Notes under the pieces: model-generated
The model's database searches: none
Told to the model about the DNA's origin: nothing
The model's input: the letters and a program-made list of their open reading frames with translations, nothing else
Made by a program: the position numbers and the translations under genes
NCBI GenBank assembly: GCA_038249055.1
Contig: JBBRWS010000006.1
Span: 927 to 64,926 of the forward strand
Length of the DNA stretch: 64,000 nucleotides
Direction of reading: 5' to 3'
DNA from: Minisyncoccia bacterium
Lineage (GTDB): Bacteria; Patescibacteriota; Minisyncoccia; Phycocordibacterales; UBA9973
Shown: positions 5,569-60,653 of the stretch, piece by piece
How positions within the stretch are numbered: position 1 is the first letter of the stretch
Layout of the letters: the number at the start of each line of letters is the position of its first letter

Positions 5569-7020
5569 ATGAATATTTTAAATTTACTTACAAAAGAAAA
5601 ACACGTAGCAGGGGTTGAAATTAACGACTTGTTTATACGTGTTACTTATTTTCGACCTCGGAAGAGAACTATTTTTAAAAAACATGAAGGTATTACAAAG
5701 CCCCCTAAGAATGAAATAGTATTAATAGAAGAATCTATACCTCCAAATGTTGTTTCAAATGGGATTGTTGTGGATAAAGTAACGCTAGGAAAGATTTTAA
5801 AAAAAATCTGGAACAAAGAGAAACTTAAAAAAAGCTACGCGATTGTTTCAATACCAGAGGATAAAATTTATTCTCATGTTTTTAGCTTCCCTAAAAATGT
5901 TACTGAGCAACAACTAGAGCTAGCCATAAATCTAGCTATTGATTTCCAACTGCCTTTCAAAAAAAATGAAGTTTATACTGGCTGGGAAAATAATAATGTT
6001 TCTAATACTTCAAATGAAATCCTTATTTCTGCAATACCTAAAAATATTGCAGATGATTATATTGAGGTTTTAAATAATGTGGATATTAGTGTTCTAGCAC
6101 TTGAATCACACATTGCAAGTATAGCCCGTTCTATAAAATTAAATGCTGGAGAAACAACTCTTATTACAAAGAAAAATCAGTTTAGCATAACGGTATTCAG
6201 CTTAAAGGATGGCATAAATCAATTTTCAAGGACATTACCACTTGTCTTTGTGAATGATGAAGAAAAATTAATTTCTGAAGTAAATAAAATAAAAATTTCT
6301 CTTGAATCTGAAACAAAAGAATCAATCAAACTACTCTCCCTCATAAACGCAACGGTCAAAGATGAATATTCAATTTACCCAGAAATTTCTGCTGACCCAG
6401 AATCCAAATGGTTTGTATCTCTAGGAGCATTTATTCGAGGAGAAATAGCACAAGGAGAAGATTATCAAATAAGTTTACTTCCTGTTGGTACTGTTAAAGC
6501 TTATGAATATCAAAAATCAAAAACATTCATAACCCTTGTTCGTAATATAATAATAGATATTTCTATATTCTTTTTAATCACTTTTATAATTGCTTATCTT
6601 TTAATTTTTTCTCTTTCTCAAATAATAACTAATACAAGTACTAATATTTCAATTGCCCCAGTTTCTCCTGAGTTAGTAGAAAAAGAATCCTTAATTAAAA
6701 AAATAAATTCTTTAACCTCAATATCTTCTTCATTTTTATCTAGCACAATAAATTGGAGTATTCTAATAGATGAAATTAATTCTCGAACTACAAGTGGAAT
6801 TATAATATCTAATTTTTCAGTTCCTTCAATAAATGAAAATGTTTCCATTATTGGTCTAGCAAAAGATCGTGATACTTTAAATGTATTTAAGAAGTCACTT
6901 CAGGAATCATCTTATGTAACTCAAGTAGAACTACCAATTACAAATTTAGAACAAAAAGCAGATATCCCATTTTCACTTTCATTTCATATTAAAGATCCTA
7001 GTATGTTATATTATAAATAA
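5569..7020 (+). CDS. PilM-like (actin-fold) protein fused to a PilN-like transmembrane/periplasmic tail
   Basis: 483 aa. The N-terminal roughly 330 aa look like a pilus-assembly ATPase-like fold. They are followed by a TM segment (IIIDISIFFLITFIIAYLLIF) and a C-terminal domain of about 120 aa. The gene lies in the pilus locus. Confidence 0.45.
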   Translation: MNILNLLTKEKHVAGVEINDLFIRVTYFRPRKRTIFKKHEGITKPPKNEIVLIEESIPPNVVSNGIVVDKVTLGKILKKIWNKEKLKKSYAIVSIPEDKIYSHVFSFPKNVTEQQLELAINLAIDFQLPFKKNEVYTGWENNNVSNTSNEILISAIPKNIADDYIEVLNNVDISVLALESHIASIARSIKLNAGETTLITKKNQFSITVFSLKDGINQFSRTLPLVFVNDEEKLISEVNKIKISLESETKESIKLLSLINATVKDEYSIYPEISADPESKWFVSLGAFIRGEIAQGEDYQISLLPVGTVKAYEYQKSKTFITLVRNIIIDISIFFLITFIIAYLLIFSLSQIITNTSTNISIAPVSPELVEKESLIKKINSLTSISSSFLSSTINWSILIDEINSRTTSGIIISNFSVPSINENVSIIGLAKDRDTLNVFKKSLQESSYVTQVELPITNLEQKADIPFSLSFHIKDPSMLYYK

Positions 7021-15709: not shown

Positions 15710-15780
15710 GGGCGATTAGTTTAGTGGTAGAACAACGGTCTCCAAAACCGTTGGTGGGGGTTCGATTCCTCCATCGCCCG
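15710..15780 (+). tRNA. tRNA-Trp (anticodon CCA)
   Basis: Manual fold. Acceptor gggcgat/atcgccc, D arm tagtttagtggtagaacaa, anticodon arm acggt-cTCCAaa-accgt, T arm gggggttcgattcctcc. CCA is not encoded. Confidence 0.85.
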
Positions 15781-15784
15781 CAAA

Positions 15785-15810: not shown

Positions 15811-15960
15811 AGGGCGATAGCAAGCAAACTGCTTTGCTTGCGTGGAGGCAGGCCGACATTATGGCCTGCACTTGTCGACGGGAATCGAAAAGCTTTTCGT
15901 TTTTCGGTGTTAACCGAAACGAAAAGGTATACTGTCCTTGTAGAGGAAGATATCCTCCAT
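15811..15960 (+). other. Conserved tRNA-downstream non-coding module, copy 1 (shared with 36383-36520)
   Basis: gggcgatAGCAAGCAAACTGCTTTGCTTGCGTG...TCGAAAAGCTTTTCGTT...CGAAAAGGTATACTG aligns with the tRNA-Ala-downstream region. A partial direct copy of the tRNA-Trp 3' end (tcctccatcg) lies at 15948-15957. Confidence 0.6.
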
Positions 15961-16017
15961 CGTATAATTGTACTCGTGGCCTTCCTCCCATATCTACTTT
16001 TTTCTATTCTTTGCTAT

Positions 16018-18165: not shown

Positions 18166-18357
18166 AATTTTTATTCTAGCATTTTAGCCAAATTTTTAAT
18201 ACACACTCTGACACCATAATAAAATGAGGATCATGAGTACATTTCTTGGTCCATATTGGACCTGTACACCTTTCGTATTTTCTAAGATTGGTAAATCATA
18301 TAAAATATACTCAAGGTTTTCAAGTCCTCTCACGCAAGCCGTACCAACGGCTTGCTT

Positions 18358-18414
18358 CCGGCACCATAATTAAAAAACCAGGACTTTGTCCTGGTTTTTT
18401 AATTATGGTGCCGG
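18358..18414. terminator. Extended palindrome/bidirectional terminator embedding the tRNA-Leu 3' end
   Basis: ccggcaccataattaaaaaacc-aggactttgtcct-ggttttttaattatggtgccgg. The arms are perfect 22-bp inverted repeats and the loop is itself palindromic. The right arm is the 3' end of tRNA-Leu. Confidence 0.8.
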
Positions 18415-18490
18415 AGAGAGGACTTGAACCTCCATCCCTTGCGAGACGCGATTTTGAGTCGCGCGCGTATACCAATTCCGCCACTCCGGC
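18406..18490 (-). tRNA. tRNA-Leu (anticodon CAA), CCA encoded
   Basis: The reverse complement reads GCCGGAGTGGCGGAATTGGTATACGCGCGCGACTCAAAATCGCGTCTCGCAAGGGATGGAGGTTCAAGTCCTCTCTCCGGCACCA. Long variable arm, anticodon loop cTCAAaa. Confidence 0.9.
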
Positions 18491-19123: not shown

Positions 19124-19172
19124 AAAATATAAAAACAACCAGATGATTTAAATCATCTGGTTGTTTTTATAT

Positions 19173-20222
19173 TTATATAGTCTCTGGTTCTTGTTCTAAT
19201 GTTATTCCAAATTTTTCTTCGATAATTTTTATTATTTCATTTTTTGCTTTCATTATATCTTCTTTTGTAGCACTTCCATTATTTACTAGAACAAGTGCGT
19301 TCTTATTATAGATAGAAACCTTCCCAAAAGACTTCCCTTTCAAACCAGCATTCTCTATGAGCCAACCTGCGGGTACTTTTGTAAATTCATTATTTACTGA
19401 GAAAAATTTTGCATCTGGAAATTGTTTTTTTATTTTATCAGCAATTTCATTTGAAACAATTGGATTTTTAAAAAATGAGCCGACATTTGGTATTTCTTTA
19501 GGGTTCGGTAATTTTTCACGGCGTATATTTATTATTGCTTCACGAACTTCTTTTAAAGTTGGATTTTTAATTTTATTAACTTCAAAATATTTAACAACTG
19601 CTGGATAAGAAAGGGCCGGAGAATAATTTTGTAAATTTTTATTTAATCTATAAGCTACAGCTGTAATTATATATTTACCTTTTGCTTTATTTTTGAAAAT
19701 ACTATCTCTATAACCAAATTCACAATCTTTGTTTGGAATAATAGAAAGAGCACCTTTTTTTATATCAAATACCTCAACCCAAAGAAGAGTGTCTTTAATT
19801 TCTGCTCCATAGGCCCCAATATTCTGCACTGGCCCAGCTCCTACAGTCCCAGGTACGGAGGAAAGAGACTCAAAACCAGACAGACCCATATCTACGGTTC
19901 GTTTTACAATATCATCCCAAATTTCACCACCTCCGACTTTTATATCAACGTATTCATCTGTTTCATTAATTATATTGAAACCTTTAATTTCAATTTTAAG
20001 AGCAAGTACGTTTAGTACTCCATCTGAAAAAACAATATTCGAACCTCCACCTAAAATAAAAATGGGGGTAATTTTATAATTTAAATCGTTTTGAACGACA
20101 GCATAAAAAACAGCAAGATCTTCTAGAGAATCAATAATAGTAAAATAGCGAAACTGCCCACCTACTTTTAGTGTTGAGTAATCCTTGATATCCACATTTT
20201 CTTGAATAATCATATCTTGCAA
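19173..20222 (-). CDS. murB: UDP-N-acetylenolpyruvoylglucosamine reductase MurB
   Basis: FAD-binding N-terminal domain (YSTLKVGG...ILGGGSNI) and a MurB C-terminal domain. 349 aa. Confidence 0.85.
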   Translation of the reverse strand: MQDMIIQENVDIKDYSTLKVGGQFRYFTIIDSLEDLAVFYAVVQNDLNYKITPIFILGGGSNIVFSDGVLNVLALKIEIKGFNIINETDEYVDIKVGGGEIWDDIVKRTVDMGLSGFESLSSVPGTVGAGPVQNIGAYGAEIKDTLLWVEVFDIKKGALSIIPNKDCEFGYRDSIFKNKAKGKYIITAVAYRLNKNLQNYSPALSYPAVVKYFEVNKIKNPTLKEVREAIINIRREKLPNPKEIPNVGSFFKNPIVSNEIADKIKKQFPDAKFFSVNNEFTKVPAGWLIENAGLKGKSFGKVSIYNKNALVLVNNGSATKEDIMKAKNEIIKIIEEKFGITLEQEPETI

Positions 20223-20287: not shown

Positions 20288-21802
20288 ATGCAAAAAAAAG
20301 AAACAGAGCAACAAAAAATTGGTTATTTTATAAAAGAATTAAGAGAGCGCCGCAATATGACTCAGGACGCTTTTGCAAAAGAACTTGAAACTTCACAAAG
20401 TGCAGTGGCTCGTATGGAAAAAGGAGAGCAAAATTTCAGTACTGAAATACTTGGAAAAATAAGTGAGGTGCTAAATCATCAAATCGTTTCAATAAACAAT
20501 TCTATTGATTTTCAGATAACTGGTGGTAGAAAATTACATGGAAGTATAAATACAAACTTTTCTAAAAATGGTGCCGTTGGGCTTCTTTGTGCTTCCCTTT
20601 TAAATAAAGGTAAGACTACCCTTCACGGAATCGCACGCATAGAGGAAGTTTACCGAGTAATAGAAATACTTGAAAGTATTGGGGTTTCAGTTAAATGGAC
20701 AGACCATAATTCAGTTTTAATTATACCTCCTGTTAAATTTAATTTAGATAAGATAAATGTAGAATCTGCAGTAAAAACTCGCTCAGTAATAATGCTCATT
20801 GGTCCTCTAATACACCTGCTCCCCTCATTCTCTATTCCTCATGCTTCCGGCTGTAAACTTGGTAAGCGTACTATTAGTGCTCACACTTATGCACTAGAAG
20901 ACCTTGGTGTAAAAATTAAAACATTAAATAATGAATATAAAATAGAAAGCAAAAAATTAAAACCTGCTAATATTATAATGTACGAGGCAGGAGATACAGC
21001 TTGTGAAAATATTCTTATGGCCGTATCAAAAATAAAAGGTACCACAACAATACGTTTTGCTAGTGCAAATTATATGGTTCAAGAAATATGCTTCTTCTTA
21101 GAAAAGTTGGGTGTAAAAATAGAAGGGATAGGAACATCTACACTTGTTGTTCATGGAGTAAAAGATATAAACATGGATATTGAATATTACAACAGTGAAG
21201 ACCCTATTGAGTCTATGATGTTCATTTCTGCAGCAATCGCAACAGATTCTGAACTTAAAATATTGAGATGCCCAATAGACTTTCTCTCTTTAGAAATTGA
21301 AAAATTAAAGAGAATGAATTTAAAATATAAAATCCTTAAAAAATATAAATCATTCAACGAGAGAACAAATTTAGTAGATTTACATATATTCCCTTCTAAA
21401 TTGAAAGCTCTTGAAGATAAAATTCATGCAAATCCCTATCCAGGAATAAATATGGACAATCTTCCCTTCTTTGTGCCTATTGCCATCAAGGCAAAGGGTC
21501 AAACTATGATTCATGACTGGGTATATGAAAACCGTGCTATATACTTTACAGAGTTAAATAGATTAGGTGCTAGTGTTACTTTGGCTGACCCACACAGAGT
21601 TTATATTCAAGGTGGCACTCCTCTTAAATCTGCACAAGTTGTATGTCCTCCAGCACTTCGTCCAGCTATGATAATTCTCATCGGAATGCTCGCAGCTAAT
21701 GGTACATCGATTCTACGTAATGTATATATGATTAAACGTGGATATGAAGAGATAGCAGAGCGATTAAATGGAATAGGTGCTGATATTAAAATCCTAAAAT
21801 AA
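20288..21802 (+). CDS. murA: XRE-family HTH domain fused to UDP-N-acetylglucosamine 1-carboxyvinyltransferase MurA
   Basis: The N-terminal roughly 65 aa (IGYFIKELRERRNMTQDAFAKELETSQSAVARMEKGEQNFSTEILGKISEVL) form a Cro/C1-type HTH. There is no stop and no internal ATG before the MurA core. The core begins ...DFQITGGRKLHGSINTNFSKNGAVGLLCASLL and carries the SGCKLGKR active-site Cys loop. Confidence 0.75.
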   Translation: MQKKETEQQKIGYFIKELRERRNMTQDAFAKELETSQSAVARMEKGEQNFSTEILGKISEVLNHQIVSINNSIDFQITGGRKLHGSINTNFSKNGAVGLLCASLLNKGKTTLHGIARIEEVYRVIEILESIGVSVKWTDHNSVLIIPPVKFNLDKINVESAVKTRSVIMLIGPLIHLLPSFSIPHASGCKLGKRTISAHTYALEDLGVKIKTLNNEYKIESKKLKPANIIMYEAGDTACENILMAVSKIKGTTTIRFASANYMVQEICFFLEKLGVKIEGIGTSTLVVHGVKDINMDIEYYNSEDPIESMMFISAAIATDSELKILRCPIDFLSLEIEKLKRMNLKYKILKKYKSFNERTNLVDLHIFPSKLKALEDKIHANPYPGINMDNLPFFVPIAIKAKGQTMIHDWVYENRAIYFTELNRLGASVTLADPHRVYIQGGTPLKSAQVVCPPALRPAMIILIGMLAANGTSILRNVYMIKRGYEEIAERLNGIGADIKILK

Positions 21803-21805
21803 TAA

Positions 21806-22372
21806 ATGAAAAAATCGGACAAAAAATTAATAATGTTTATAGGTAAAACTCATTCTGGTAAGACTACTTTTGCAAAAGAAATAGAAAAAGAATGTAATAT
21901 TATTATTCTCGAAGCGGATCCTATTGCACTATTTATGAATGAATATTTTCCAAAATTAAGGGAGTGTGATGACAAAAGTCATACAAGCTCTTTTAAAAAT
22001 ATTTCATTAAAATATAAAACATTCTTACTCTTCGTTGAATTTGCAATGTCTCTTAATAAAACTATATTATTATCAAATTCAAATATGTGGTCAAATGGAC
22101 GTAAACTTATTTTTAAATTAGCTAAAAAATTTGATTATAAAATTATTGGTGTCTATTTTGATTTACCAGAAAATTTATTATTTGAAAGAGTTAAAAATTC
22201 TAAAAGAGATGAAGCCGTGCTTAGAGTATCTAAAGATTTTAATGATTTAATTATAAATCAAAGAACTAGAATGGAAATACCAATCTCAAAAGATTTTGAT
22301 AAATTTTTTGTAATAAAATCAGCAGAAGATTTAAAACAAACAAAATCAAATTTGATTAAAATAATAAAATAA
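21806..22372 (+). CDS. P-loop nucleotide/nucleoside kinase-like protein (AAA_33/zeta-toxin-like fold)
   Basis: Walker A is FIGKTHSGKTT at the N-terminus. 188 aa. Confidence 0.5.
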   Translation: MKKSDKKLIMFIGKTHSGKTTFAKEIEKECNIIILEADPIALFMNEYFPKLRECDDKSHTSSFKNISLKYKTFLLFVEFAMSLNKTILLSNSNMWSNGRKLIFKLAKKFDYKIIGVYFDLPENLLFERVKNSKRDEAVLRVSKDFNDLIINQRTRMEIPISKDFDKFFVIKSAEDLKQTKSNLIKIIK

Positions 22373-22403
22373 AAACTGCGAGGTAATCCTCGCAGTTTTT
22401 ATT

Positions 22404-22973
22404 TTAATTTAAATCTATTTTTTCATAAGTTTTTATTAATTTTATCCAAGTTTCGTATATTTCTTTAAGCTTATTTTGAATCTCTGGGAAAGCTGCCAAA
22501 TCTCTATAATCACGCTCTATTTTAGAATATACTTTAAATTCTCTATTGTTTTCTTTGTCATTTTTAGCAATATCAAAATACAAAGATGATGTCATATGAC
22601 TTGCAGAATCTACGCATGCAATAATCTTAGCTTCTAGTGTTTCAGGTATAATATCATTACATCTATGTGCCCTTACACAGTGCAAAACTTTATCTATTTT
22701 ATTATTGGAATAATTTTCTTTCTCAAGAAATTCACGTGCTCTTTGTTCGCTTCTCACTGCATGATCAATATCCGCTGGAACAGGATAATGTCCTATATCA
22801 TGAAGCCATACAGAGAGAAGAACTACTTCCATGTCTGCTTGTGGGTATTTTTTTAATAAATATATTGCCCATTTTTCAACTTCTGGAACATGAGAAAGCA
22901 ATTGATATGGGTCTTTACCAAAATCATTAATTACTTTTATAAACTCATTTTTAGTTTTTTCAATTATTGTCAT
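22404..22973 (-). CDS. HD-domain phosphohydrolase
   Basis: VWLHDIGH (the H...HD motif) and a downstream His/Asp. Confidence 0.6.
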   Translation of the reverse strand: MTIIEKTKNEFIKVINDFGKDPYQLLSHVPEVEKWAIYLLKKYPQADMEVVLLSVWLHDIGHYPVPADIDHAVRSEQRAREFLEKENYSNNKIDKVLHCVRAHRCNDIIPETLEAKIIACVDSASHMTSSLYFDIAKNDKENNREFKVYSKIERDYRDLAAFPEIQNKLKEIYETWIKLIKTYEKIDLN

Positions 22974-26451: not shown

Positions 26452-26542
26452 ATAGAGGTCCAACCTCTACCTAAATTGAAAATAATTGAAATAAAACTGT
26501 TGATAAATAAAGGTATATTTTAGGTAGAGGTTGGACCTCTAT
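26452..26542. repeat. 24-bp perfect inverted repeats (hairpin-containing) of the GAGGTCCAACCTC family
   Basis: atagaggtccaacctctacctaaa at 26452-26475 and tttaggtagaggttggacctctat at 26519-26542. Each arm is itself a palindrome (tagagg-tccaa-cctcta). Located between divergent/convergent gene ends. Confidence 0.85.
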
Positions 26543-36083: not shown

Positions 36084-36269
36084 TTAAACAAGTAAAAAAT
36101 ATGAGCATCCATACATTTATAATATTGAATATATGGGCGCTTATATTAACTTGCAAAAAATATAAAATACGGTAAGATAGGAGTATCTTAATTATTAATT
36201 TAATAATTATTGGGTTTAGTTAGATATTTAATTCTTAATTGGTCATTCTTAATTATTAATTATATTATT

Positions 36270-36342
36270 GGGCCTTTAGCTCATCTGGTAGAGCGCCTCA
36301 TTTGCAATGAGGAGGTAAGCGGTCCGAGTCCGCTAAGGTCCA
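36270..36342 (+). tRNA. tRNA-Ala (anticodon TGC) with G3:U70
   Basis: GGGCCTTTAGCTCATCTGGTAGAGCGCCTCATTTGCAATGAGGAGGTAAGCGGTCCGAGTCCGCTAAGGTCCA. Anticodon arm cctca-tTTGCAa-tgagg. Acceptor G3-T70 wobble (the Ala identity element). CC follows and the final A is not encoded. Confidence 0.85.
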
Positions 36343-36349
36343 CCCGTTG

Positions 36350-36382: not shown

Positions 36383-36520
36383 TTAGGTGGACCTTAGCGA
36401 GCAAACTACTTTGCTCGCGTGCGGCGATTAGTAAATCGAACCGTGAGGAACTCGGAAAGCTTTTCGTTATAAATTTTAATTTAATAATTTAAATTTATCG
36501 AAAAGGTGTACTGAAGCAGT
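36383..36520 (+). other. Conserved tRNA-downstream non-coding module, copy 2
   Basis: ggaccttAGCGAGCAAACTACTTTGCTCGCGTG...TCGAA...GGAAAGCTTTTCGTT...CGAAAAGGTGTACTG. The motif order is the same as at 15811-15942. Confidence 0.6.
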
Positions 36521-36732
36521 AGGCTTCGAGAAATGTAATCATGGTCCGCCTATCGTGATACACAATATTTAGATGCAAAGCATACTATATAAAAAGTTTT
36601 AGTCGCGGGTGAGAAGCGCGAATAAGTACATTCGCCTACTGGGTACTCGCGGTCCGCTACTTGTAGGCTTCGAGAAATGTACTCATGGTCCGCCTTTCGT
36701 GATACACAATATTTAGATGCAAAGCATATCAC
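36521..36732. repeat. Two 65-bp direct repeats
   Basis: aggcttcgagaaatgta(a/c)tcatggtccgcct(a/t)tcgtgatacacaatatttagatgcaaagcata occurs at 36521-36585 and 36666-36730. The track ORF 36550..36732 is a translation artefact of this repeat. A partial copy of the tRNA-Ala T-arm (gcggtccgcta) lies at 36651-36661. Confidence 0.85.
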
Positions 36733-37094: not shown

Positions 37095-37170
37095 AGTTTT
37101 TCCCTCCTGTTATTTTAAATTAAAAAATTTTATTTATTTTTTTAAAAAGAACAATTAAAAACATAAAGAA

Positions 37171-37205
37171 CTAAAAACCAGCTTTCTTTTGAAAGCTGGT
37201 TTTTA
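37171..37205. terminator. Rho-independent terminator (bidirectional)
   Basis: aaaaaccagctttcttttgaaagctggtttttag. Confidence 0.7.
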
Positions 37206-37636
37206 GTAATAAATAAAATTGGAGAGTATTATTAACAAAAATCAACCTTCAAATTGAAAGTAAAGAAATAGAAACTTCCCCAGAAGCTTTTATTTAAATT
37301 TTGATTTTTGTTAATATCTAACATATTTATATAATTACATTTTTATATTTTTAAGTCAATAAACAAATATGACTATGCCAAGAAAAAATAAACTTATTGA
37401 CTCGAGCGCTTTAATATGTTAAGGTATTCAAGAATTATTAATTTAAATTTGTACATATGCCATTTACACATGAGTGGGTCGTTGTGGAAGCACCCAAAAA
37501 AGAAGACGTTTTAAATAATGAAGAACAACACGTATTTTTACCTGGTGTCCCCATGAATTAAAATTATCCACTACAATTAAAAAACCCTTCAATCGAAAGT
37601 TTGAAGGGTTTTTCTTTTTTTACTATATATAATTTA

Positions 37637-38359: not shown

Positions 38360-38797
38360 ATGTCTAATCCACAACCAAACGAGAATATACCTGTTAAAAA
38401 AATCCATATACTTATGATTGATGACGACCCAGAAATGAGACGTCTTTTTGGTGGGTGGCTAACGATTCTAGGATATGAAATTATTTATGCTTCTGATGGC
38501 AACGAGGGTCGTGAGACAGCTCGACGTCTTCAACCAGATTTAATCCTAATGGATGAAAGAATGCCTGTTATGGATGGCATCGAATCCGCAACAAGAATGA
38601 AATCAGAAGATCCAACAAAAAATATTCCAATAATACTTTTTACTAATGAAGATTTTTCTTTAGAAGCTGAAAAAATGGTAAAAGATATAGGTATAGATGC
38701 TTATGTTCATAAATCATCTGATTTTAGTGTTATTAAAAAAATTATTAAAGATATTTTAGAGAAAAAAGGAATATCTGTTACCCCTCCAAATAAATAA
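38360..38797 (+). CDS. Single-domain response regulator receiver (CheY-like)
   Basis: IHILMIDDDPEMR...DLILMDERMPVMDG...K. No output domain. Confidence 0.8.
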   Translation: MSNPQPNENIPVKKIHILMIDDDPEMRRLFGGWLTILGYEIIYASDGNEGRETARRLQPDLILMDERMPVMDGIESATRMKSEDPTKNIPIILFTNEDFSLEAEKMVKDIGIDAYVHKSSDFSVIKKIIKDILEKKGISVTPPNK

Positions 38798-38809
38798 AAC
38801 TATTAATAA

Positions 38810-38862
38810 TAAAAAATAGAGGTTGTACGTCTATGGAAGACGTCCAACCTCTATTTTTTTAT
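38810..38862. terminator. Bidirectional terminator formed by a GAGGTTG(G/T)AC-family palindromic element
   Basis: aaaaaatagaggttgtacgtcta-tggaa-gacgtccaacctctattttttt, between convergent genes. Confidence 0.8.
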
Positions 38863-38872
38863 TATTTTATAT

Positions 38873-39850
38873 TTATTCCCATTCAAATTTTCTTCCAAAA
38901 TGTCCCCACGTGCAAGTATCAGAAAATTTAACAACATCCAATTTCAAGTGATTATGTATCCCCTTTGGAGTTAAATCGTAATCAGTTATTTCTACTTCTT
39001 TTCCATCTATTACAGCCACAGCCATTACTGGCTCACTCTTACCTATTGCATAAGCAAGCTTTGTATATACTTCTTTCGCATTATGCTTCTTTAGTAAGTC
39101 CACAGCTATTTTACGAGCCATATAAGCACCAGAGCGATCTACTTTTGTATAATCCTTACCAGAGAAAGAACCTCCTCCAATTGTAATCTCTGGTCCATAG
39201 TTATCTACTATCAATTTTCTTCCAGAAAGTCCTGTGTCTGCATCAAATCCACCTTGATTCCATTCTCCCGCAGGATTTATAAGATATTCTTCTGATTCAA
39301 TAATATTTTTTACAAGTTCTAAAAGTTTATCGTTTTTAGTATTTTGAAAACTAGCTACGACTGTAGTAACGACACCATTATCTACTGTCACTTGAGTCTT
39401 TCCATCATAAGGATATACTTCAAATATTTTCTGACATAAATTTCGGGCAAGATTATATTCGAGAGGTAAATATGTATCAGTCTCACTTGTAGCATAACCT
39501 TTCATTATTCCTTGGTCTCCCGCTCCACCCGTATCAACTCCTTGTGCTATTTCTGGACTTTGTAAAACTATATTCGACAAAATTTTAAAATCTTTACCTA
39601 CTATTTTTTTTATAATAGCTTCTATGTCTGGATTTGATTTTGAAGTAACTTCTCCATTGATGGCTACCAGATTATGCCCACCCATTACTTCTATAGCACA
39701 ACGACTATTCTTATCTCCTTCTAAATATGCATCTAAAATACTATCCGCAATAAAATCACATATTTTATCTGGGTGCATTGGACTCACAAACTCTGCAGTT
39801 TTTTTACTCATGCTTGATTTATAAGGAAGAATGACTATATAAATCGGCAT
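38873..39850 (-). CDS. metK: S-adenosylmethionine synthetase (short form)
   Basis: Near the N-terminus: FVSPMHPDKICDFIADSILDAYL (the GHPDK motif). Also GGGAFSGKD. The likely start is the internal ATG (MSKKTAEF..., about 39811). Total length is about 312-325 aa. Confidence 0.8.
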   Translation of the reverse strand: MPIYIVILPYKSSMSKKTAEFVSPMHPDKICDFIADSILDAYLEGDKNSRCAIEVMGGHNLVAINGEVTSKSNPDIEAIIKKIVGKDFKILSNIVLQSPEIAQGVDTGGAGDQGIMKGYATSETDTYLPLEYNLARNLCQKIFEVYPYDGKTQVTVDNGVVTTVVASFQNTKNDKLLELVKNIIESEEYLINPAGEWNQGGFDADTGLSGRKLIVDNYGPEITIGGGSFSGKDYTKVDRSGAYMARKIAVDLLKKHNAKEVYTKLAYAIGKSEPVMAVAVIDGKEVEITDYDLTPKGIHNHLKLDVVKFSDTCTWGHFGRKFEWE

Positions 39851-40165
39851 CCTGTTAAATAAGATTTAACAGGGTTGATTAAAATATAATACGCTTCGCT
39901 CCTTTATTTTAATTAAAAAATTCCTCATAATGAGGAAAGATATAGATGACTAGTCTTATCTTTCCATAATAATACACTTGCATTATTTGGCTGGATTTAG
40001 CACCTTGCTTTCGCGGGTTGCTGATGGGTCATTGAGCCAGTTGCTCTCGCCATACTCTTGATAACTAACTATTTAGTTGTAATTTTATTATAGCATAATT
40101 TTATAAACAAAAATATTTCCATAAAAAAAATAACGAGGATATATCCTCGTTATTTTTTTATAATA

Positions 40166-45489: not shown

Positions 45490-45513
45490 TATAATTTTAT
45501 TGTTTGTACTGAT

Positions 45514-45548
45514 TCTAAAAAACAACAAATTTATTTGTTGTTTTTTAG
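45514..45548. terminator. Rho-independent terminator (bidirectional)
   Basis: ctaaaaaacaacaaatttatttgttgttttttag. Confidence 0.75.
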
Positions 45549-46043
45549 AATCCTTCCCCGTTTCGTCATTTATGACTCATCAGACAAAATGCACATTTTG
45601 TTACGGGAGCTACAAAAAAGAAAAAATTCTTTTTTGTAGCGTCTCAAATTAATAAATTATATATAATATTTATTAATATAATTAATTTTAGAATTACAAC
45701 CCGCAAAACCCTAGTAGTGTAATCGTACCGTTATCTAGGTTATGCTCATCAATGTATATCGGCTTGAAATGCGCTCGCCGCTTTCATCCACCTCGTGGAT
45801 TACTCATAAAATAGAAATTCTTTCTTAGAAAGAATCACGTATTTCAATATACTCTGCCCAAGTTATTATTGAACCATTATACTCAACTAAATCAGTATCA
45901 GGTCTTAGAATAACTTCAGCTTCTTTTAAATTTTCCATTTAAAAAAAATTGTTTTTTGACGCTGAAAGAATATACTTCTTTCAAGGTTTAAATTGTATCT
46001 GTAAAGATCAACTCATGTATAGTATACCACAAAAATTACTTAT

Positions 46044-51066: not shown

Positions 51067-52113
51067 ATGGATGAAAACAAGAGAGAAAGAAAGGTCATAA
51101 AAATATCAAAGAAAAAGTTTAAAACTTTTATTTGGATCATTATTTTGATTATTATACTCTGGGCAGTTAAATCAGTTGTATTTAATTCATTCGGAGTTGG
51201 AAGAATGACAGGTTCAAGTATAACACCTAGTGATGGCATAAGTGAAGATTATTATAACCCATCATCTCAAAATATGATGCCACCTGATTATTATGACCGA
51301 GGATACCAAAAACCATCTATTTCTGATACTAGAGAATTTTTAAAGACTAGTTATTCTGCATCAATAAAGACAAGGAACGTGAAGGATGTTATGCAAGATG
51401 TAACTAATATTGTTAAAGGAGCAGATGGTAGAATCGATAATTCTTATAGTTCCGAAAAAAGTGGACGTATTAGTTTTGTCGTAGCTAAAAGCAAATTTGA
51501 AGAATTTAAAAATCAAATAGAAAGTATAACTCACAAAAAACTTTATACAGAAACTATCTCATCTCAAAATCTACTCAGTCAAAAACAAGGGATAGAAGAG
51601 CAAACTGGAAATATAGTAAATACATTAACTAATTTACAAGATCAAAAGACAAGTCTAGAGACAAAACATATCCAAACAGTCACTGCTATAAACAAAGAAC
51701 TTACTAGAATTAAAGCTGAACTAGTAGCGGTTAGAGCAGTTATTGCCACAACTACAGAACCTTTAGTTTTAGATTCTTTTGTTAGCCAAGAAAATTCTTT
51801 AGTTAAACAAGAAAATACTCAAAAACAAAAATTGGTGATAGAAAATAATAGCTATATAGCTCAAAGCCAAAGTCTTGAAAATTCTATCAATGATGCTAAC
51901 AACGGCCTAATAAATGTAAATAATCAAGACAGCCAATTTACAGATACTATTGAAACTGTAAATGGAAGTGTTAGTGTTGATTGGATTAGCTTATGGGAAA
52001 TGGCAGATATATTCTCCCCTATTTCTCCATTTATTATCATAATAATCCTAGTAATAATAATTATTATGTATCTTAAACGTAGAGGAAGTATTCCACGAGT
52101 TGAATTCCAGTAA
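51067..52113 (+). CDS. Bitopic coiled-coil membrane protein (hypothetical)
   Basis: Basic N-terminus plus TM (FIWIIILIIILWAV), a long coiled-coil-like middle, and a C-terminal TM (FSPISPFIIIIILVIIIIMYL). Confidence 0.4.
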   Translation: MDENKRERKVIKISKKKFKTFIWIIILIIILWAVKSVVFNSFGVGRMTGSSITPSDGISEDYYNPSSQNMMPPDYYDRGYQKPSISDTREFLKTSYSASIKTRNVKDVMQDVTNIVKGADGRIDNSYSSEKSGRISFVVAKSKFEEFKNQIESITHKKLYTETISSQNLLSQKQGIEEQTGNIVNTLTNLQDQKTSLETKHIQTVTAINKELTRIKAELVAVRAVIATTTEPLVLDSFVSQENSLVKQENTQKQKLVIENNSYIAQSQSLENSINDANNGLINVNNQDSQFTDTIETVNGSVSVDWISLWEMADIFSPISPFIIIIILVIIIIMYLKRRGSIPRVEFQ

Positions 52114-52128
52114 AATTAAATAATTAAA

Positions 52129-52174
52129 ATAGAGGTTGGACGTCTACGATAGACGTCCAACCTCTATTTTTTTA
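52129..52174. terminator. Bidirectional terminator formed by a GAGGTTGGAC-family palindromic element
   Basis: atagaggttggacgtcta-cga-tagacgtccaacctctattttttt, between convergent genes. Confidence 0.8.
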
Positions 52175-52183
52175 ATTTAATAT

Positions 52184-53008
52184 TTATTTTTTTACAGAAG
52201 ACAAAGATACAATAAATTTAGTTCCTTTATCTTTACCTTCACTCTCCACTCTAATAGAACCACCCATTTTTTCTACGAGTTCTTTACATATTGAGATTCC
52301 AAATCCTGTACCTTTTTCTTTATTTGTTCCATCAGTACTAACTCCAGCATTTTCAAAAAGTTTTTTTATTTGATCATTGGTCATTCCAACTCCATTATCA
52401 TTAATAGATACTTCAACTTTATCATTAATTTTTTCAGCAGAAACAGAGACTTCCCCGCCTTCTTTGGTAAATTTAAGTGAATTAGAACAAAGATTTCTAA
52501 TTACAGTTTGTAGCATATTTGAATCTGCAAATATTTCCATATCATTTGGAACTTCATTTGTAAGTTTTATATTTTTTTGGTTAGCAATACTTTGCAAAGG
52601 TGAAATTGCATTATTCACTTGATCAGATAATTTTATTTCTAAAACTTCTATTTTCATACCATCCTGCTGAAGTCGACTCCAGATTAATAAATCTTCGAGT
52701 AATTTAAGGGTGGCTTCATTATCTTTTGAAAGTGACTCCAACATAATAGCTAATTCTGCTTTATTGATTGAGCCGTACTTTATATCTTCAAGTAAAAATT
52801 TGGTTACAACCGCCGCGTTCCCTATTGGATTAATTAAATCATGAGCTATTATACGAAACAATTTTGTCATATTTTCCGACTTATTTTTTAAAGCTTCATT
52901 TTCAGCTTCTAATTGTTCTACCTTAAGAGCCAAAGACCATTCCTGTTCAATAGGCATTACATTGGGCTTTTCTTCCTTTTTATTTAAATTTTCCATAATT
53001 ATATCCAA
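52184..53008 (-). CDS. Soluble sensor histidine kinase (HisKA + HATPase_c), no TM
   Basis: H box RIIAHDLINPIGN. N, G1 and G2 boxes are present (NLCSNSLKFT, NDNGVGM, GTGFGISICKELV). Confidence 0.8.
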   Translation of the reverse strand: MDIIMENLNKKEEKPNVMPIEQEWSLALKVEQLEAENEALKNKSENMTKLFRIIAHDLINPIGNAAVVTKFLLEDIKYGSINKAELAIMLESLSKDNEATLKLLEDLLIWSRLQQDGMKIEVLEIKLSDQVNNAISPLQSIANQKNIKLTNEVPNDMEIFADSNMLQTVIRNLCSNSLKFTKEGGEVSVSAEKINDKVEVSINDNGVGMTNDQIKKLFENAGVSTDGTNKEKGTGFGISICKELVEKMGGSIRVESEGKDKGTKFIVSLSSVKK

Positions 53009-59678: not shown

Positions 59679-59755
59679 CGTGATATAGCTCAGTTGGTAG
59701 AGCACTAAGCCTAAAAAACTCAGAGGTCGGGAGTTCAAGTCTCTCTATCACGACG
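59679..59755 (+). tRNA. tRNA-like gene with canonical acceptor, D and T arms but a 9-nt anticodon loop (CCUAAAAAA) and an A-C mismatch in the anticodon stem
   Basis: cgtgata-ta-gctc-agttggta-gagc-a-ctaag-cctaaaaaa-ctcag-aggtc-gggag-ttcaagt-ctctc-tatcacg-a. The architecture parallels tRNA-Lys/Thr. Terminator at 59797-59829. Confidence 0.5.
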
Positions 59756-59796
59756 TACTTTTCTACTCAATGAAGATGGATCTAAATCATCTTCCG

Positions 59797-59829
59797 GGGA
59801 CCGTTTGCTATTTAGCGACGGTCCTTTTT
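59797..59829 (+). terminator. Rho-independent terminator
   Basis: ggaccgtttgctatttagcgacggtccttttttatt. Confidence 0.75.
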
Positions 59830-60653
59830 TATTTCCTATTAATCTCAAATTCTGGCATACCTATTACATAAGGACCGACTTGATATTGTGAAAAATATAT
59901 TTTTATTTTATTATCTGTGAAAGTAAATATACCAAAGTTTTCATCTATTGGTTCTGTCCCAATTTTTATCATAGAAATAATATTATCTACATACTCTTTT
60001 AATGCTTCGGGCGAAGAATCTTTTTTATCTTCTTCACTAATAGTTGCAAATTCTTTTTTTAGATATTCTCGAGACTCTATTGAAAGTTTATCTAAATATT
60101 CTGGATTATTTGCAAAAAGTTCTTTCAGTTGAATATTTTTTTTATTCTTAATATCGTAATTAAACGAAGTTAAATTTTCATATCCATGAGCACCTCCATT
60201 AAATCCACCATATTTTAGAATAAAACTAATATAATTGGAATTACTCTGAACTATAGTAAAATCTGAAAAAAATGAAAATTTGTCATCTTCATTTATTGGA
60301 AGTTTTGTAATAGTATCTCCTTCTACTCGTGTATCAAAACGAGCAGTCCAATTATCTTTGCTTATAATTCTATGATCTTCCATCTGTAACTTAACAAAGT
60401 TCTCAATATTTAAATTAAAATCATTATCAGCCCCATTAAAATAAGGATATTTTACATCAAATTTTACATAGGAATCAACGATATTCAAAACTTTTGTTTC
60501 AAAAGAGCCAGCTACAATGAGTTCTTCTTTTTGTTGGGTTAATTTATTATCATCTATTTTTATTTCTTCATTTATTCCTCTTTTTTGATAGATAAAAAAC
60601 CCCGATACTAAAACTGTAATAATCAATAAAACAGCGATTAAAAATTTTTTCAT
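59829..60653 (-). CDS. Membrane-anchored DUF3298/DUF4163-like (RsiV/PdaC-like) domain protein
   Basis: N-terminal TM. YGGFNGGAHGYEN matches the GGAHG hallmark of DUF3298. Confidence 0.45.
   Translation of the reverse strand: MKKFLIAVLLIITVLVSGFFIYQKRGINEEIKIDDNKLTQQKEELIVAGSFETKVLNIVDSYVKFDVKYPYFNGADNDFNLNIENFVKLQMEDHRIISKDNWTARFDTRVEGDTITKLPINEDDKFSFFSDFTIVQSNSNYISFILKYGGFNGGAHGYENLTSFNYDIKNKKNIQLKELFANNPEYLDKLSIESREYLKKEFATISEEDKKDSSPEALKEYVDNIISMIKIGTEPIDENFGIFTFTDNKIKIYFSQYQVGPYVIGMPEFEINRK

Follow-up and report, generated by a model that had tools for sequence, protein, structure and literature searches.

The window, that is, the whole 64,000-nucleotide stretch of DNA analysed here, carries a tRNA-Leu(CAA) gene on its reverse strand, the 3' end of which is embedded in a long palindrome. 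By a repeat search of the window, the palindrome comprises two arms of 28 nt each, 18357-18384 and 18388-18415, which are 100% complementary around a 3-nt loop, with one arm including the terminal 10 nt of the tRNA (TCCGGCACCA). The earlier note on this DNA had placed the tRNA end within a palindrome, which is borne out in enlarged form; its 22-nt arms and 13-nt centre are the same palindrome as the 28-nt arms, because that centre is itself palindromic. It had also described the opposite arm as running on past a hairpin insert into T-arm antisense, and the repeat search agrees: a further 13-nt block, 100% matched (18319-18331 versus 18416-18428), spans the T-loop, the 3' strand of the T-stem and C66, and is parted from the 28-nt arm by a 22-nt hairpin at 18334-18355. 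The antisense arms target the terminal 23 nt of tRNA-Leu, from the T-loop to CCA. The features of the locus are as follows.

18406-18490, minus strand: tRNA-Leu(CAA) gene, CCA encoded (ARAGORN; Rfam tRNA model, 58 bits)
18367-18405, minus strand: trailer and the tRNA's own intrinsic-terminator-type hairpin (A-tract, GGAC/GTCC core, T-tract), forming the palindrome centre; also seen at empty orthologous sites and in the L111/L099 comparison
18357-18366, minus strand: 5' arm part 1 (g1), TGGTGCCGGA, antisense of the acceptor 3' strand, discriminator and CCA; outer part of the 28-nt arm; cognate-specific in 21/21 tRNA-element pairs
18334-18355, minus strand: P2, a 9-bp hairpin splitting the antisense at the acceptor/T-stem junction; 9/9 pairs with compensatory changes in 30 copies
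18319-18331, minus strand: 5' arm part 2 (g2 and anti-T-loop), GAGAGGACTTGAA, antisense of the T-loop, T-stem 3' strand and C66
18226-18318, minus strand: conserved, covarying domain (covariance model match 18214-18365, 122 bits, E=1.6e-31)
18269-18316, minus strand: P3 of the domain, followed by junction GGTGTACAG
18248-18262, minus strand: P4 of the domain, followed by junction AAGAAATGTACTCATGA
18226-18230, minus strand: TCCTC, which duplicates the T-stem 3' strand and closes the three-way junction
18206-18225, minus strand: second, degenerate antisense copy, ATTTTATTATGGTGTCAGAG, in place of the direct acceptor copy of other family members (repeat search, 83-84%)

In 64 kb at 30% GC, with a per-pair match probability of 0.286, the random expectation for a perfect 28-nt hairpin is ~1e-10. 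This genome has many long, perfect terminator hairpins of the A-tract/T-tract kind (e.g. 19125-19174), and several perfect terminator palindromes with arms of 17-25 nt have no relation to a tRNA. The Leu palindrome is distinctive by reaching into the tRNA, not by arm length. Its centre has the G+C-containing hairpin and T-run of an intrinsic terminator, which explains only the inner ~19 nt of each arm; a terminator would have nothing conserved beyond its hairpin, whereas here a 150-nt covarying domain and tRNA-matched arms come after it.

The palindrome is the edge of a folded, non-coding element of ~150-250 nt that lies directly behind tRNA genes in bacteria of the candidate phyla radiation (CPR). 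Two further loci in the window carry such elements, behind tRNA-Trp and tRNA-Ala, where the shorter inverted copies reported earlier are present at 8 nt (15811-15818) and 11-14 nt (36386-36399), respectively.

15811-15999, plus strand: element behind tRNA-Trp (tRNA 15710-15781); covariance model 43 bits, E=2e-9
15811-15818, plus strand: g1, AGGGCGAT
15820-15841, plus strand: P2
15844-15848, plus strand: g2, GGAGG
15849-15869, plus strand: extra hairpin
15881-15889, plus strand: anti-T-loop, GGAATCGAA
15893-15927, plus strand: P3
15969-15979, plus strand: TGTACTCGTGG
15982-15988, plus strand: TTCCTCC
36386-36561, plus strand: element behind tRNA-Ala (tRNA 36269-36345); covariance model 94.5 bits; clusters with the Ala element of locus L110
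36386-36396, plus strand: g1, GGTGGACCTTA, with A opposite U70
36397-36418, plus strand: P2
36450-36456, plus strand: anti-T-loop, ACTCGGA
up to 36547, plus strand: domain, with a GTCCGC closing strand
36570-36728, plus strand: incomplete second element or duplication following the Ala element, with 36519-36585 repeated at 36663-36728 and a weak covariance model match at 36570-36705

A conserved structured domain of ~150 nt is common to the Leu, Trp and Ala loci, and T-loop antisense occurs in all three; both had escaped the earlier note, as had the frequency of perfect terminator hairpins and the degenerate sequence at 18206-18225, a third antisense copy at the Leu locus. The three elements are homologous but divergent (column identity 63%) and follow one layout: the tRNA's own terminator is succeeded by antisense to the acceptor 3' strand, a covarying hairpin, antisense to the T-stem 3' strand and T-loop, a covarying three-way-junction domain and a direct copy of the tRNA 3' end, which is decayed in all three. 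The acceptor part of their 3' arms is at background, with scores of 5-6 versus 4.4 +/- 1.1, and a minihelix formed by the two arms is therefore unable to close fully in the window elements. Tandem elements occur at five other loci (L025, L094, L097, L108 and L113), with identical copies in L094, L097 and L108, and the degenerate Leu copy is probably the remnant of a tandem second element.

With a covariance model, we found more than 70 copies behind tRNAs for 14 amino acids, 30 of the matches coming from GTDB loci together with the window and 43 from metagenome loci. True matches were confined to Patescibacteria (CPR) contigs, namely Nomura-/Paceibacteria, Saccharibacteria, and Zambryski- and Kaiserbacteria. 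All copies found lie directly downstream of a same-strand tRNA gene; in each of two sets, 25/36 tRNAs are followed on their own strand by an element at a distance of 0-110 nt. Some are embedded in operons, abutting tRNA-Ile and tRNA-Glu or, in one case, lying 10 nt upstream of tRNA-Val. The 5' arm is a two-part, exact Watson-Crick antisense of the last ~20-22 nt of the element's own tRNA (T-loop, T-stem 3' strand, acceptor 3' strand, discriminator and often trailer), mostly split by the covarying hairpin at the acceptor/T-stem junction. The three-way-junction domain covaries and terminates in GUACUCAYGG. The 3' arm repeats UCC and the T-stem 3' strand, to which ~40% of copies add the whole acceptor 3' strand, the discriminator and 1-5 nt of trailer; this direct 3' copy is perfect (14/14) in 8/20 copies. 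Where the 3' arm is intact, e.g. in L015, L022 and L025, an acceptor/T-arm-like helix is predicted, of a geometry suited to RNase P/RNase Z cleavage.

The antisense matches the cognate tRNA in 21/21 pairs, scoring 13-18 of 18 versus 9.3 +/- 1.5 for non-cognate pairs. By a scan independent of the domain, a 12-nt antisense of T-loop and T-stem 3' strand (at most one mismatch) was found within 450 nt downstream of 43/79 tRNAs and upstream of 0/79, with the T-loop antisense following each tRNA's own T-loop variant. The arm exactly complements the tRNA 3' strand even at G.U pairs of the tRNA, as in Ala, where the U of G3.U70 faces an A. It therefore does not reproduce the tRNA 5' strand and lacks G3.U70, the identity pair for alanine. 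An aminoacylatable tRNA mimic of the tmRNA/TLS type was rejected, the Ala elements of the window and L007 having A3-U70 instead of G3.U70.

The structure comprises 37 pairs, of which 26-30 show compensatory changes; double changes were counted at 30/37. Cells are paired at 92.8% versus 68.8% in shuffles, and the covariation score of 0.58 compares with 0.17 for shuffles and ~0.09 for slid controls; these measures beat 500/500 shuffles and the slid controls, and the compensatory changes looked for as a mark of RNA-level selection are present. Outside one helix dictated by the T-loop, the non-Watson-Crick cells are divided equally between G.U (26) and A.C (26), leaving helices that are almost purely Watson-Crick and show no surplus of G.U on the transcribed strand. 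Such helices are unusual for RNA-level selection and equally compatible with a structure that acts as DNA.

The architecture, which the earlier note proposed to look for at other tRNAs and at orthologous loci, recurs at other tRNAs, and the Leu(CAA) palindrome is retained in L112 and L113 with compensatory changes in the trailer. The Leu(CAA) element occurs only in these two and the window; six further relatives have neither the element nor the extended palindrome. In L112, P2 is replaced by a different hairpin, and in L113 the Leu element is truncated. Orthologues at the Trp locus are of type A in L113 and L119 and of type B in L112, L117 and L118. Empty orthologous sites (L114, L116, L118 and L119) retain a terminator-type hairpin lacking the outer arms. 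In the filled/empty pair L111/L099, the native terminator is still attached to the tRNA, and insertion therefore took place after the terminator; the junction is not that of a clean insertion and shows no target-site duplication. A second comparison, L004 versus L024, involves an assembly gap, and L004 carries a different element type. From the filled/empty comparison, what had been described as an inverted partial copy of the tRNA, and is no property of the terminator either, is rather the 5' arm of a separate, conserved and covarying element placed after the native terminator.

These sites also bear on coincidence, the explanation by which over-long bidirectional terminators simply run into the tRNA and no separate element exists. 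The perfect palindromes away from tRNAs speak for it, as does the Leu palindrome centre, itself a terminator of that kind. We regard it as extremely improbable and, on the following grounds, refuted: the 13-nt block is non-contiguous and lies beyond a conserved hairpin, a 150-nt covarying domain is held in common, the homologues stand behind cognate-matched tRNAs, and at empty sites the terminator does not reach into the tRNA.

The patchy occupancy raises the question of a non-autonomous mobile DNA element, a miniature repeat of 5' arm, hairpin, domain and 3' arm, on which a recombinase or HUH-type enzyme encoded at another site would act in trans to move it. Its arms, folded as single-stranded DNA, would mimic the tRNA gene 3' end as a duplex (cf. 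CTX-phage attP and integron attC) and target the site behind the terminator, the junction motifs being protein-binding or cleavage sites. The presence of the Leu(CAA) element in the window, L112 and L113 and its absence from six relatives are consistent with this, as are the tandem identical copies, the truncated copies (L113-Leu, L024-Glu and L063), the equality of G.U and A.C, and the fixed orientation and insertion point after the terminator. Single domain subfamilies also follow different tRNAs, as cluster 25 does with Ala, His, Ser-gga and Ser-gct and cluster 24 with Tyr, Arg and Lys. However, none of the 62 window ORFs is a transposase, integrase or reverse transcriptase, and the L111/L099 pair shows neither duplication nor clean insertion. 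Within a single genome the copies are old and have diverged, and from genome to genome some group by tRNA type (Leu, Ala and Gln), unlike a recent burst; retargeting would require a simultaneous change of four matched segments, and copies within tRNA operons must be transcribed. On balance, we find mobile DNA doubtful. The earlier suggestion of a recombination mark at tRNA ends stands as far as turnover is concerned, given the direct 3'-end copies, tandems, truncations and presence/absence patterns; it fails in that there is no integrase in the window and insertion lies after the terminator.

A different reading places the functional partner of the 5' arm in the 3' half of the upstream tRNA. 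In such a cis-acting antisense clamp on the pre-tRNA, the arm, transcribed by read-through, would zip from the terminator stem and displace the acceptor and T-stem 5' strands of the tRNA, forming a three-way junction beside the domain; the domain or a bound protein would then process, modify, degrade or sense the tRNA, with the 3' arm as internal competitor (a switch). That the trailer region can pair with the tRNA 3' strand, as the earlier note held, is supported by folding: minimum free energy folds of 3/3 tRNA-plus-downstream transcripts take the clamp form, with z-scores of -6 to -13. The antisense to the tRNA is retained in 21/21 pairs, while the element's own acceptor copy persists in only ~40% of copies and is lost in 3/3 window copies. 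A 7-nt T-loop antisense tracks each tRNA and is partnerless in the element's invariant 3' side, and the guide-hairpin-guide topology resembles that of known guide RNAs. Complementarity tracks the genomic trailer, hence the precursor, and not the mature CCA end: TGG is found in the arm only where the gene encodes CCA (window Leu), and orthologues with no encoded CCA have arms matching the genomic trailer AAA (AAACAATT/AATTGTTT; AAATAAAA/TTTTATTT), and the role in CCA maintenance once suggested is not supported. Against the clamp, synthesis of the arm comes only after the tRNA has folded and may already have been processed, and a terminator lies between tRNA and element at most loci. The junction has no unpaired target nucleotide and therefore no modification pocket; elements are lost in close relatives with no visible change in the tRNA, and the trailer might be perfectly complementary only because perfect terminator palindromes are a habit of this genome. 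We consider a clamp unlikely.

We favour, with a probability of roughly 45%, an explanation in which the Leu palindrome is the junction of tRNA-Leu's A-tract/T-tract terminator hairpin with the 5' arm of a separate, tRNA-tethered element. The element would probably be transcribed with its tRNA, by terminator read-through or, where no terminator intervenes, as part of the tRNA operon. The 5' arm would pair with the element's own 3' arm into a perfect acceptor/T-stem-like minihelix, with a hairpin in place of the D and anticodon arms, a shape that RNase P, RNase Z and the CCA-adding enzyme could accept. In copies with a decayed 3' arm, all three of the window among them, the 5' arm may pair instead with the 3' half of the upstream pre-tRNA, giving rise to the long palindrome. 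Selection for pairing could uphold the perfect match between arm and tRNA, as could template switching at the terminator with the hairpin serving as template; template switching is a documented route to making and perfecting hairpins (PMC8794818). Recombination would carry copies from one tRNA locus to another; with duplication, truncation and loss all frequent, the family would act as a semi-selfish and dispensable passenger of tRNA genes. How often copies have been lost, truncated or swapped for another type among close relatives argues against an essential role. Besides this turnover, the almost purely Watson-Crick helices and the decayed 3' arms of the window copies, further observations sit uneasily with this explanation: a terminator-type hairpin stands ahead of most copies, and a minihelix closing on itself would not require the T-loop antisense, an indication that the arm truly pairs with the tRNA or is copied from it.

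We found no description of the family in the searchable literature, nor a match in PMC5737381, and our best reading is that it is a previously undescribed family of tRNA-tethered structured elements in Patescibacteria. Only tRNA and a SAM riboswitch pass Rfam 15 thresholds in the window, and permissive scans of the three loci and one type-B locus gave sub-threshold noise only (HDV-like, group I/II introns, HEARO, ROOL/GOLLD, Y RNA and tmRNA among the families). There were 0 covariance model matches in 14 viral loci and 0 blastn matches in 50,697 phage records. ARAGORN was negative for a tmRNA or second tRNA gene. A small ORF in the conserved ATGTACTCATGG was dismissed because its frame is not conserved: the Leu and Tyr copies reach TGA after three codons. 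Nor did the elements yield a convincing promoter for themselves, which also counts against the favoured explanation; the Leu element contains a TTGAAA-17-TATGAT match that other copies do not reproduce. A GUAC/GUAC tertiary pairing between the two junctions is unsupported because G-to-A variants (window Trp and L045) are uncompensated.

Among known systems, 3'ETS RNAs (e.g. E. coli 3'ETS-leuZ), plant mitochondrial t-elements and MALAT1 mascRNA represent 3' external transcribed spacers or tRNA-like processing signals. By analogy, the element resembles them as non-coding sequence behind a tRNA gene or within a tRNA operon, with a predicted acceptor/T-arm-like closing stem and possible excision by RNase P and RNase Z. 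In contrast, 3'ETS RNAs and t-elements are not known to match the neighbouring tRNA base for base, to carry T-loop antisense or to form a family with a member per tRNA species. As with attL/attR of islands and prophages, the tRNA 3' end is directly repeated around an insert, the repeat starting where the T-loop ends and running a few nt beyond the discriminator (perfect over 14 nt in 8/20 copies and degenerate in the window), and tandem arrays occur. Unlike att sites, the element has no integrase, no crossover within the tRNA and no cargo in its ~200 nt, follows the native terminator, and adds an inverted copy and a folded domain; the 377-aa ORF adjoining the Leu locus is an alanine racemase, and an integrase or prophage att site was rejected.

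Primer-binding sites of retroviruses and LTR retrotransposons likewise complement the 3'-terminal ~18-22 nt of one tRNA. Here, however, the complement in most copies tracks the genomic trailer instead of the mature CCA end, is interrupted by a hairpin, adjoins no reverse transcriptase or LTR and has its tRNA in cis immediately upstream; we rejected a primer-binding site because complementarity tracks trailers, not CCA, and the window encodes no reverse transcriptase. T-box riboswitches are also structured, specific to a single tRNA and paired with its 3' end, but the element has no Stem I/specifier or T-box sequence, stands downstream of a tRNA gene instead of upstream of an aaRS gene, and pairs with ~20 nt that are double-stranded in the folded tRNA. 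With no Rfam T-box match even at E<=10 and unrelated downstream genes, a T-box was discarded. HDV-like 'theta' ribozymes are structured RNAs adjoining phage tRNAs, immediately 3' of them (PMC10879173), and group IIC introns follow intrinsic terminator hairpins directly, in both cases as the element does; unlike them, it has no match to HDV-like or group II models of Rfam at permissive thresholds and no reverse-transcriptase ORF, and it was not found in phage/viral collections, and neither class has tRNA-matched arms. MITEs, REPINs and IS200-IS605-derived palindromes share with it a small, hairpin-rich, non-coding nature and variability among relatives. It differs in that its copies share no terminal inverted repeats, show no target-site duplication and are not dispersed through the window in near-identical form; a MITE/REPIN-type repeat was set aside, the window copies being divergent and the arms differing per tRNA, although tandem identical copies do exist.

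Guide-hairpin-guide RNAs (H/ACA guides and the IS110 bridge RNA) also have antisense split by a conserved hairpin. We speculate, as a possibility of low likelihood, that the elements are genome-wide tRNA-specific guide RNAs, one per tRNA gene, whose split arm would capture the 3' half of the cognate pre-tRNA (or gene) beside a catalytic or protein-recruiting domain, for RNA-guided tRNA processing, modification, quality control or self-retargeting mobility with no known bacterial counterpart. The likeness has limits: both halves bind one strand contiguously, there is no pocket or core dinucleotide, and no partner protein was found.

The family is directly testable, because some of the carrier Saccharibacteria belong to groups with cultured, genetically tractable members. 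If the tRNA-tethered element is what we propose, CPR bacteria, whose genomes are tiny and which account for a large part of bacterial diversity, would spend repeated stretches of 150-250 nt on elements individually matched to their tRNAs. These would represent either a new class of tRNA-linked RNA, possibly serving in pre-tRNA 3'-end handling, in tRNA-specific regulation or as decoys, or a new kind of repeat that retargets by copying its target. The finding would bear on tRNA gene expression and maintenance in minimal genomes, on the origin of perfect hairpins, and on the evolution of RNA- or DNA-guided target recognition without a CRISPR-like apparatus.

The earlier note had described a palindrome at the 3' end of tRNA-Leu, with shorter inverted copies behind tRNA-Ala and tRNA-Trp; all three are present in the window, and an alignment of the regions downstream of these tRNA genes showed them to be homologous across ~200 nt.

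Features in the window (bit scores are from a covariance model trained on 19 element copies):
18406-18490, minus strand: tRNA-Leu(CAA), CCA encoded (ARAGORN)
18214-18365, minus strand: element behind tRNA-Leu, covariance-model match, 122 bits
36413-36561, plus strand: element behind tRNA-Ala, covariance-model match, 94 bits
15838-15999, plus strand: element behind tRNA-Trp, covariance-model match, 43 bits

At tRNA-Leu, a repeat finder confirmed inverted arms of 28 nt (18357-18384 and 18388-18415), 100% complementary across a 3-nt gap, and a second, separate pair (18319-18331 and 18416-18428), perfect over 13 nt. By our calculation, the chance expectation of a perfect 28-nt hairpin in 64 kb is about 1e-10. 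On the tRNA strand, the tRNA end (...TTCAAGTCCTCTC-TCCGGCACCA) is followed by a trailer and an A-tract/T-tract hairpin, then by TGGTGCCGGA, antisense of tRNA-Leu positions 67-76, a 9-bp hairpin (18334-18355), and GAGAGGACTTGAA, antisense of the T-loop, the T-stem 3' strand and C66. The palindrome is long because the first antisense block, g1, prolongs a terminator that is symmetric already. Symmetric perfect terminators are frequent in this genome, with intergenic examples of 17-25-nt arms (A-tract, core, T-tract) at 19125-19174 (25-nt arms), 45511-45552, 22365-22406, 40124-40159 and 37170-37207; the Leu palindrome stands out because it extends into the tRNA, not because it is long. This genome-wide tendency towards perfect hairpins would fit either frequent correction templated by hairpins or selection for terminators that work in both directions. 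Three further intergenic hairpins (26452-26542, 38793-38877 and 52112-52184) share a palindromic core, TAGAGGTTGGACGTCTA / TAGACGTCCAACCTCTA, and look like a REP-like repeated terminator family with no relation to tRNAs.

The 377-aa ORF beside tRNA-Leu, considered as an integrase, is an alanine racemase (alr). At 18206-18225, in the stretch separating the element from the start codon of alr (18165), is a degenerate second antisense of the tRNA-Leu 3' end, probably what remains of a second element in tandem. Within the Leu element, a promoter-like TTGAAA-17-TATGAT (10/12 matches; 18295-18323, minus strand) is directed toward alr, its -35 hexamer being the anti-T-loop; comparable matches occur in loci L025 and L015 and are not general among elements.

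Common to the three window elements are a hairpin, GCRAGCnnn-loop-nnnGCTYGC, followed by GTG; the segment GGAAYTCGRAA, which at each locus is the reverse complement of its own tRNA's T-loop; and AAGCTTTTCG...CGAAAAGGTRTACWG, a short hairpin and then AGAAATGTAMTCATGRTCC, a motif with three occurrences in the window against 0.01 expected. Rfam matched four tRNAs and one SAM riboswitch in the window and nothing else, and permissive Rfam scans of element loci gave no relevant match. The riboswitch (39953-40067, minus strand) lies upstream of metK (38873-39850), an ordinary arrangement. A tRNA called with anticodon AAA ('Phe') by both ARAGORN and Rfam (59679-59754, plus strand) is unusual in its anticodon region, cctaaaaaactc; two hairpins (about 59770-59830) and no element come after it. 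Possible identities are a tRNA whose anticodon loop is enlarged, a pseudogene and a tRNA-like RNA.

In a well-preserved copy behind a tRNA-Arg gene (L015), the tRNA, trailer and terminator hairpin are followed by g1, which is complementary to the acceptor 3' strand, the discriminator and a few bases of the trailer, then by hairpin P2, and by g2 with the anti-T-loop, complementary to the T-stem 3' strand and to the T-loop in all seven bases. Next comes a domain whose helices P3 and P4 are arranged about a three-way junction, then ...GUACUCAUGG, and finally a 3' arm that repeats the end of the tRNA in direct orientation, comprising UCC, the T-stem 3' strand, the acceptor 3' strand, the discriminator and 1-5 trailer bases. 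Given an antisense 5' arm and a direct-copy 3' arm, g1/g2 can pair either with their own 3' arm or with the 3' half of the upstream tRNA; paired with their own arm, they would form an acceptor/T-stem-like minihelix, with P2 at the place from which the D and anticodon arms would extend. Across 30 copies, standard pairs fill 92.8% of cells versus 68.8% in shuffles, with double changes at 30 of 37 pairs; the covariation score is 0.58, versus 0.17 in shuffles and ~0.09 with partners slid 1-3 columns. The helices are nearly all Watson-Crick, and G.U and A.C are equally frequent (26 each, leaving out one helix dictated by the T-loop), so the helices lack the pattern that selection acting on a single RNA strand usually leaves. 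A less likely alternative to the reading favoured below is a DNA repeat mobilised in trans, its folded arms mimicking the end of a tRNA gene; the window's 62 ORFs include no transposase, integrase or reverse transcriptase.

An exact-pattern scan over one genome per GTDB species yielded 67 loci. The ~24 loci that contain the complete motif all come from Patescibacteria MAGs (Nomurabacteria, Paceibacteria, Saccharibacteria, Zambryskibacteria and Kaiserbacteria); in 20 of 25, the element is immediately preceded by a tRNA gene in the same orientation. The covariance model found 30 elements in the GTDB loci and window, 43 more in 30 metagenome contigs, and none in 14 viral contigs with chance pattern matches; blastn against 50,697 phage records gave no match. 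The elements follow tRNAs for Ser (5 anticodons), Ala, Arg (2), Ile, Tyr, Leu (2), Gln, Lys, His, Glu, Trp, Asn and Val (2). All four tRNAs of one 11-kb contig (L097) are followed by elements, two in tandem, and identical copies in tandem also occur. One domain subfamily clusters behind Ala, His and two Ser tRNAs, another behind Tyr, Arg and Lys. A second domain type, type B (...TTTTTCAGYAGAAAAA...ACTYGTGAC...GTGTACTCACGA), takes the same position behind some tRNAs (L004, L007, L048, L025, L112, L117 and L118), with fragments behind the window's Ala element (36519-36585 and 36663-36728); since it escapes the first covariance model, the family exceeds the count. Neither the full-text literature searched, an incomplete collection, nor the largest catalogue of candidate bacterial RNAs yielded a description of the family, so an earlier one may exist.

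Specificity was scored as the best alignment between the reverse complement of T-loop-to-discriminator (20 nt) and the element's 5' part. Cognate pairs (n = 21) reached 13-18 of a possible 18, versus 9.3 ± 1.5 for non-cognate pairs. A domain-independent detector (antisense of T-loop and T-stem 3' strand, 12 nt, at most 1 mismatch, within 450 nt downstream) was positive downstream of 43/79 tRNAs and upstream of 0/79, in loci preselected for elements, so that only the upstream/downstream contrast is informative. Plain coincidence as the explanation of the palindromes is excluded. Seven T-loop variants (TTCGAAT, TTCGATT, TTCAAAT, TCCGATT, TTCGAGT, TTCAAGT and TCCGAGT) are each mirrored in the element, and the element's own 3' side opposite the anti-T-loop is invariant. 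At tRNA G.U pairs (Ala G3.U70, Ser(CGA) G5.U68 and the window Trp T-stem), the arm has A and so complements the 3' strand; it is thus no copy of the tRNA's 5' strand, and the G3.U70 identity pair is missing from Ala elements.

Two contigs, L099 and L111, are nearly identical except behind tRNA-Val, where an A-tract/T-tract hairpin leads to 20 unrelated bases in L099 and directly to g1, P2, g2, a small domain and the direct copy in L111. The terminator thus belongs to the tRNA, and the element is the block immediately past its T-run. The elements show no evident promoter of their own. Several loci (Ile, Glu) have no terminator between tRNA and element, and in L099 and L111 only 10-22 nt separate an element from the tRNA gene that follows it; judged by this arrangement, these copies at least are probably transcribed within tRNA operons, and expression of the others would depend on terminator read-through. 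Of 20 elements, 8 have a perfect (14/14) direct 3' copy; the three window elements all retain only its T-stem part (scores 5-6 versus a background of 4.4 ± 1.1). In predicted folds of the three window transcripts, the tRNA 3' half pairs with the arm, as expected from the decay of the element's own acceptor copy there. Pairing of this kind would also suit a cis-acting clamp or guide on the pre-tRNA, a reading we consider less likely than the favoured one.

Conservation at orthologous loci, a check named in the earlier note, was examined at eight syntenic loci fetched through close Alr homologues (L112-L119). The tRNA-Leu(CAA) element and a perfect palindrome recur in L112 and L113 (Alr 86% and 84% identical); in L114-L119 (75-82%) no palindrome extends into the tRNA, which is followed by a plain terminator or directly by the alr start codon. 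Trailer and arm have changed together (CCATAATT/AATTATGG in the window, AAACAATT/AATTGTTT in L113, AAATAAAA/TTTTATTT in L112), leaving the palindrome perfect. P2 is swapped for an unrelated hairpin in L112; the L113 element is truncated, and the block that it forms with tRNA-Leu (5690-5950) lies the other way round with respect to murB and alr than in the window and L112. In clustering, the Leu(CAA) element groups with those behind tRNA-Leu(GAG), and the T-arms of both tRNAs are nearly identical, which suggests that it was copied from a Leu(GAG) locus and its acceptor arm then re-matched. The Trp element occurs in 6 of the 8 genomes, window included, having tRNA-Trp in the sampled locus; domain types A and B substitute for each other at this site with a common end, GUGUACUCAYGR, and L113 has perfect 30-nt arms as well as two tandem copies. 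Nearby, MurA (EPSP_synthase fold; window 20288-21802, plus strand) has an N-terminal HTH_3 domain, a fusion kept in 8/8 syntenic relatives. In L116 (8769-10804), a reverse transcriptase (RVT_1) and then a bAvd gene form a diversity-generating retroelement 2.6 kb from alr; reverse transcriptases therefore exist in this group, though none in the window.

The element has the position of 3'ETS RNAs and of theta ribozymes, the direct repeat of tRNA-targeted islands, the antisense of primer-binding sites and the tRNA specificity of T-boxes, but lacks a defining feature of each. These data establish a large, structurally conserved, Patescibacteria-restricted family, each member tied to a tRNA gene and matching it in sequence; its mode of action, in contrast, we infer. 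We favour, at a probability of roughly 0.45, a 3' external spacer transcribed together with the tRNA, whose arms would fold into a tRNA-like minihelix or, once the 3' arm is lost, whose 5' arm would clamp the 3' half of the pre-tRNA. The arms would stay perfect through selection or through copying templated by the hairpin at the terminator, a mechanism documented to generate perfect stems (PMC8794818), and elements may turn over through recombination at repeated tRNA ends.
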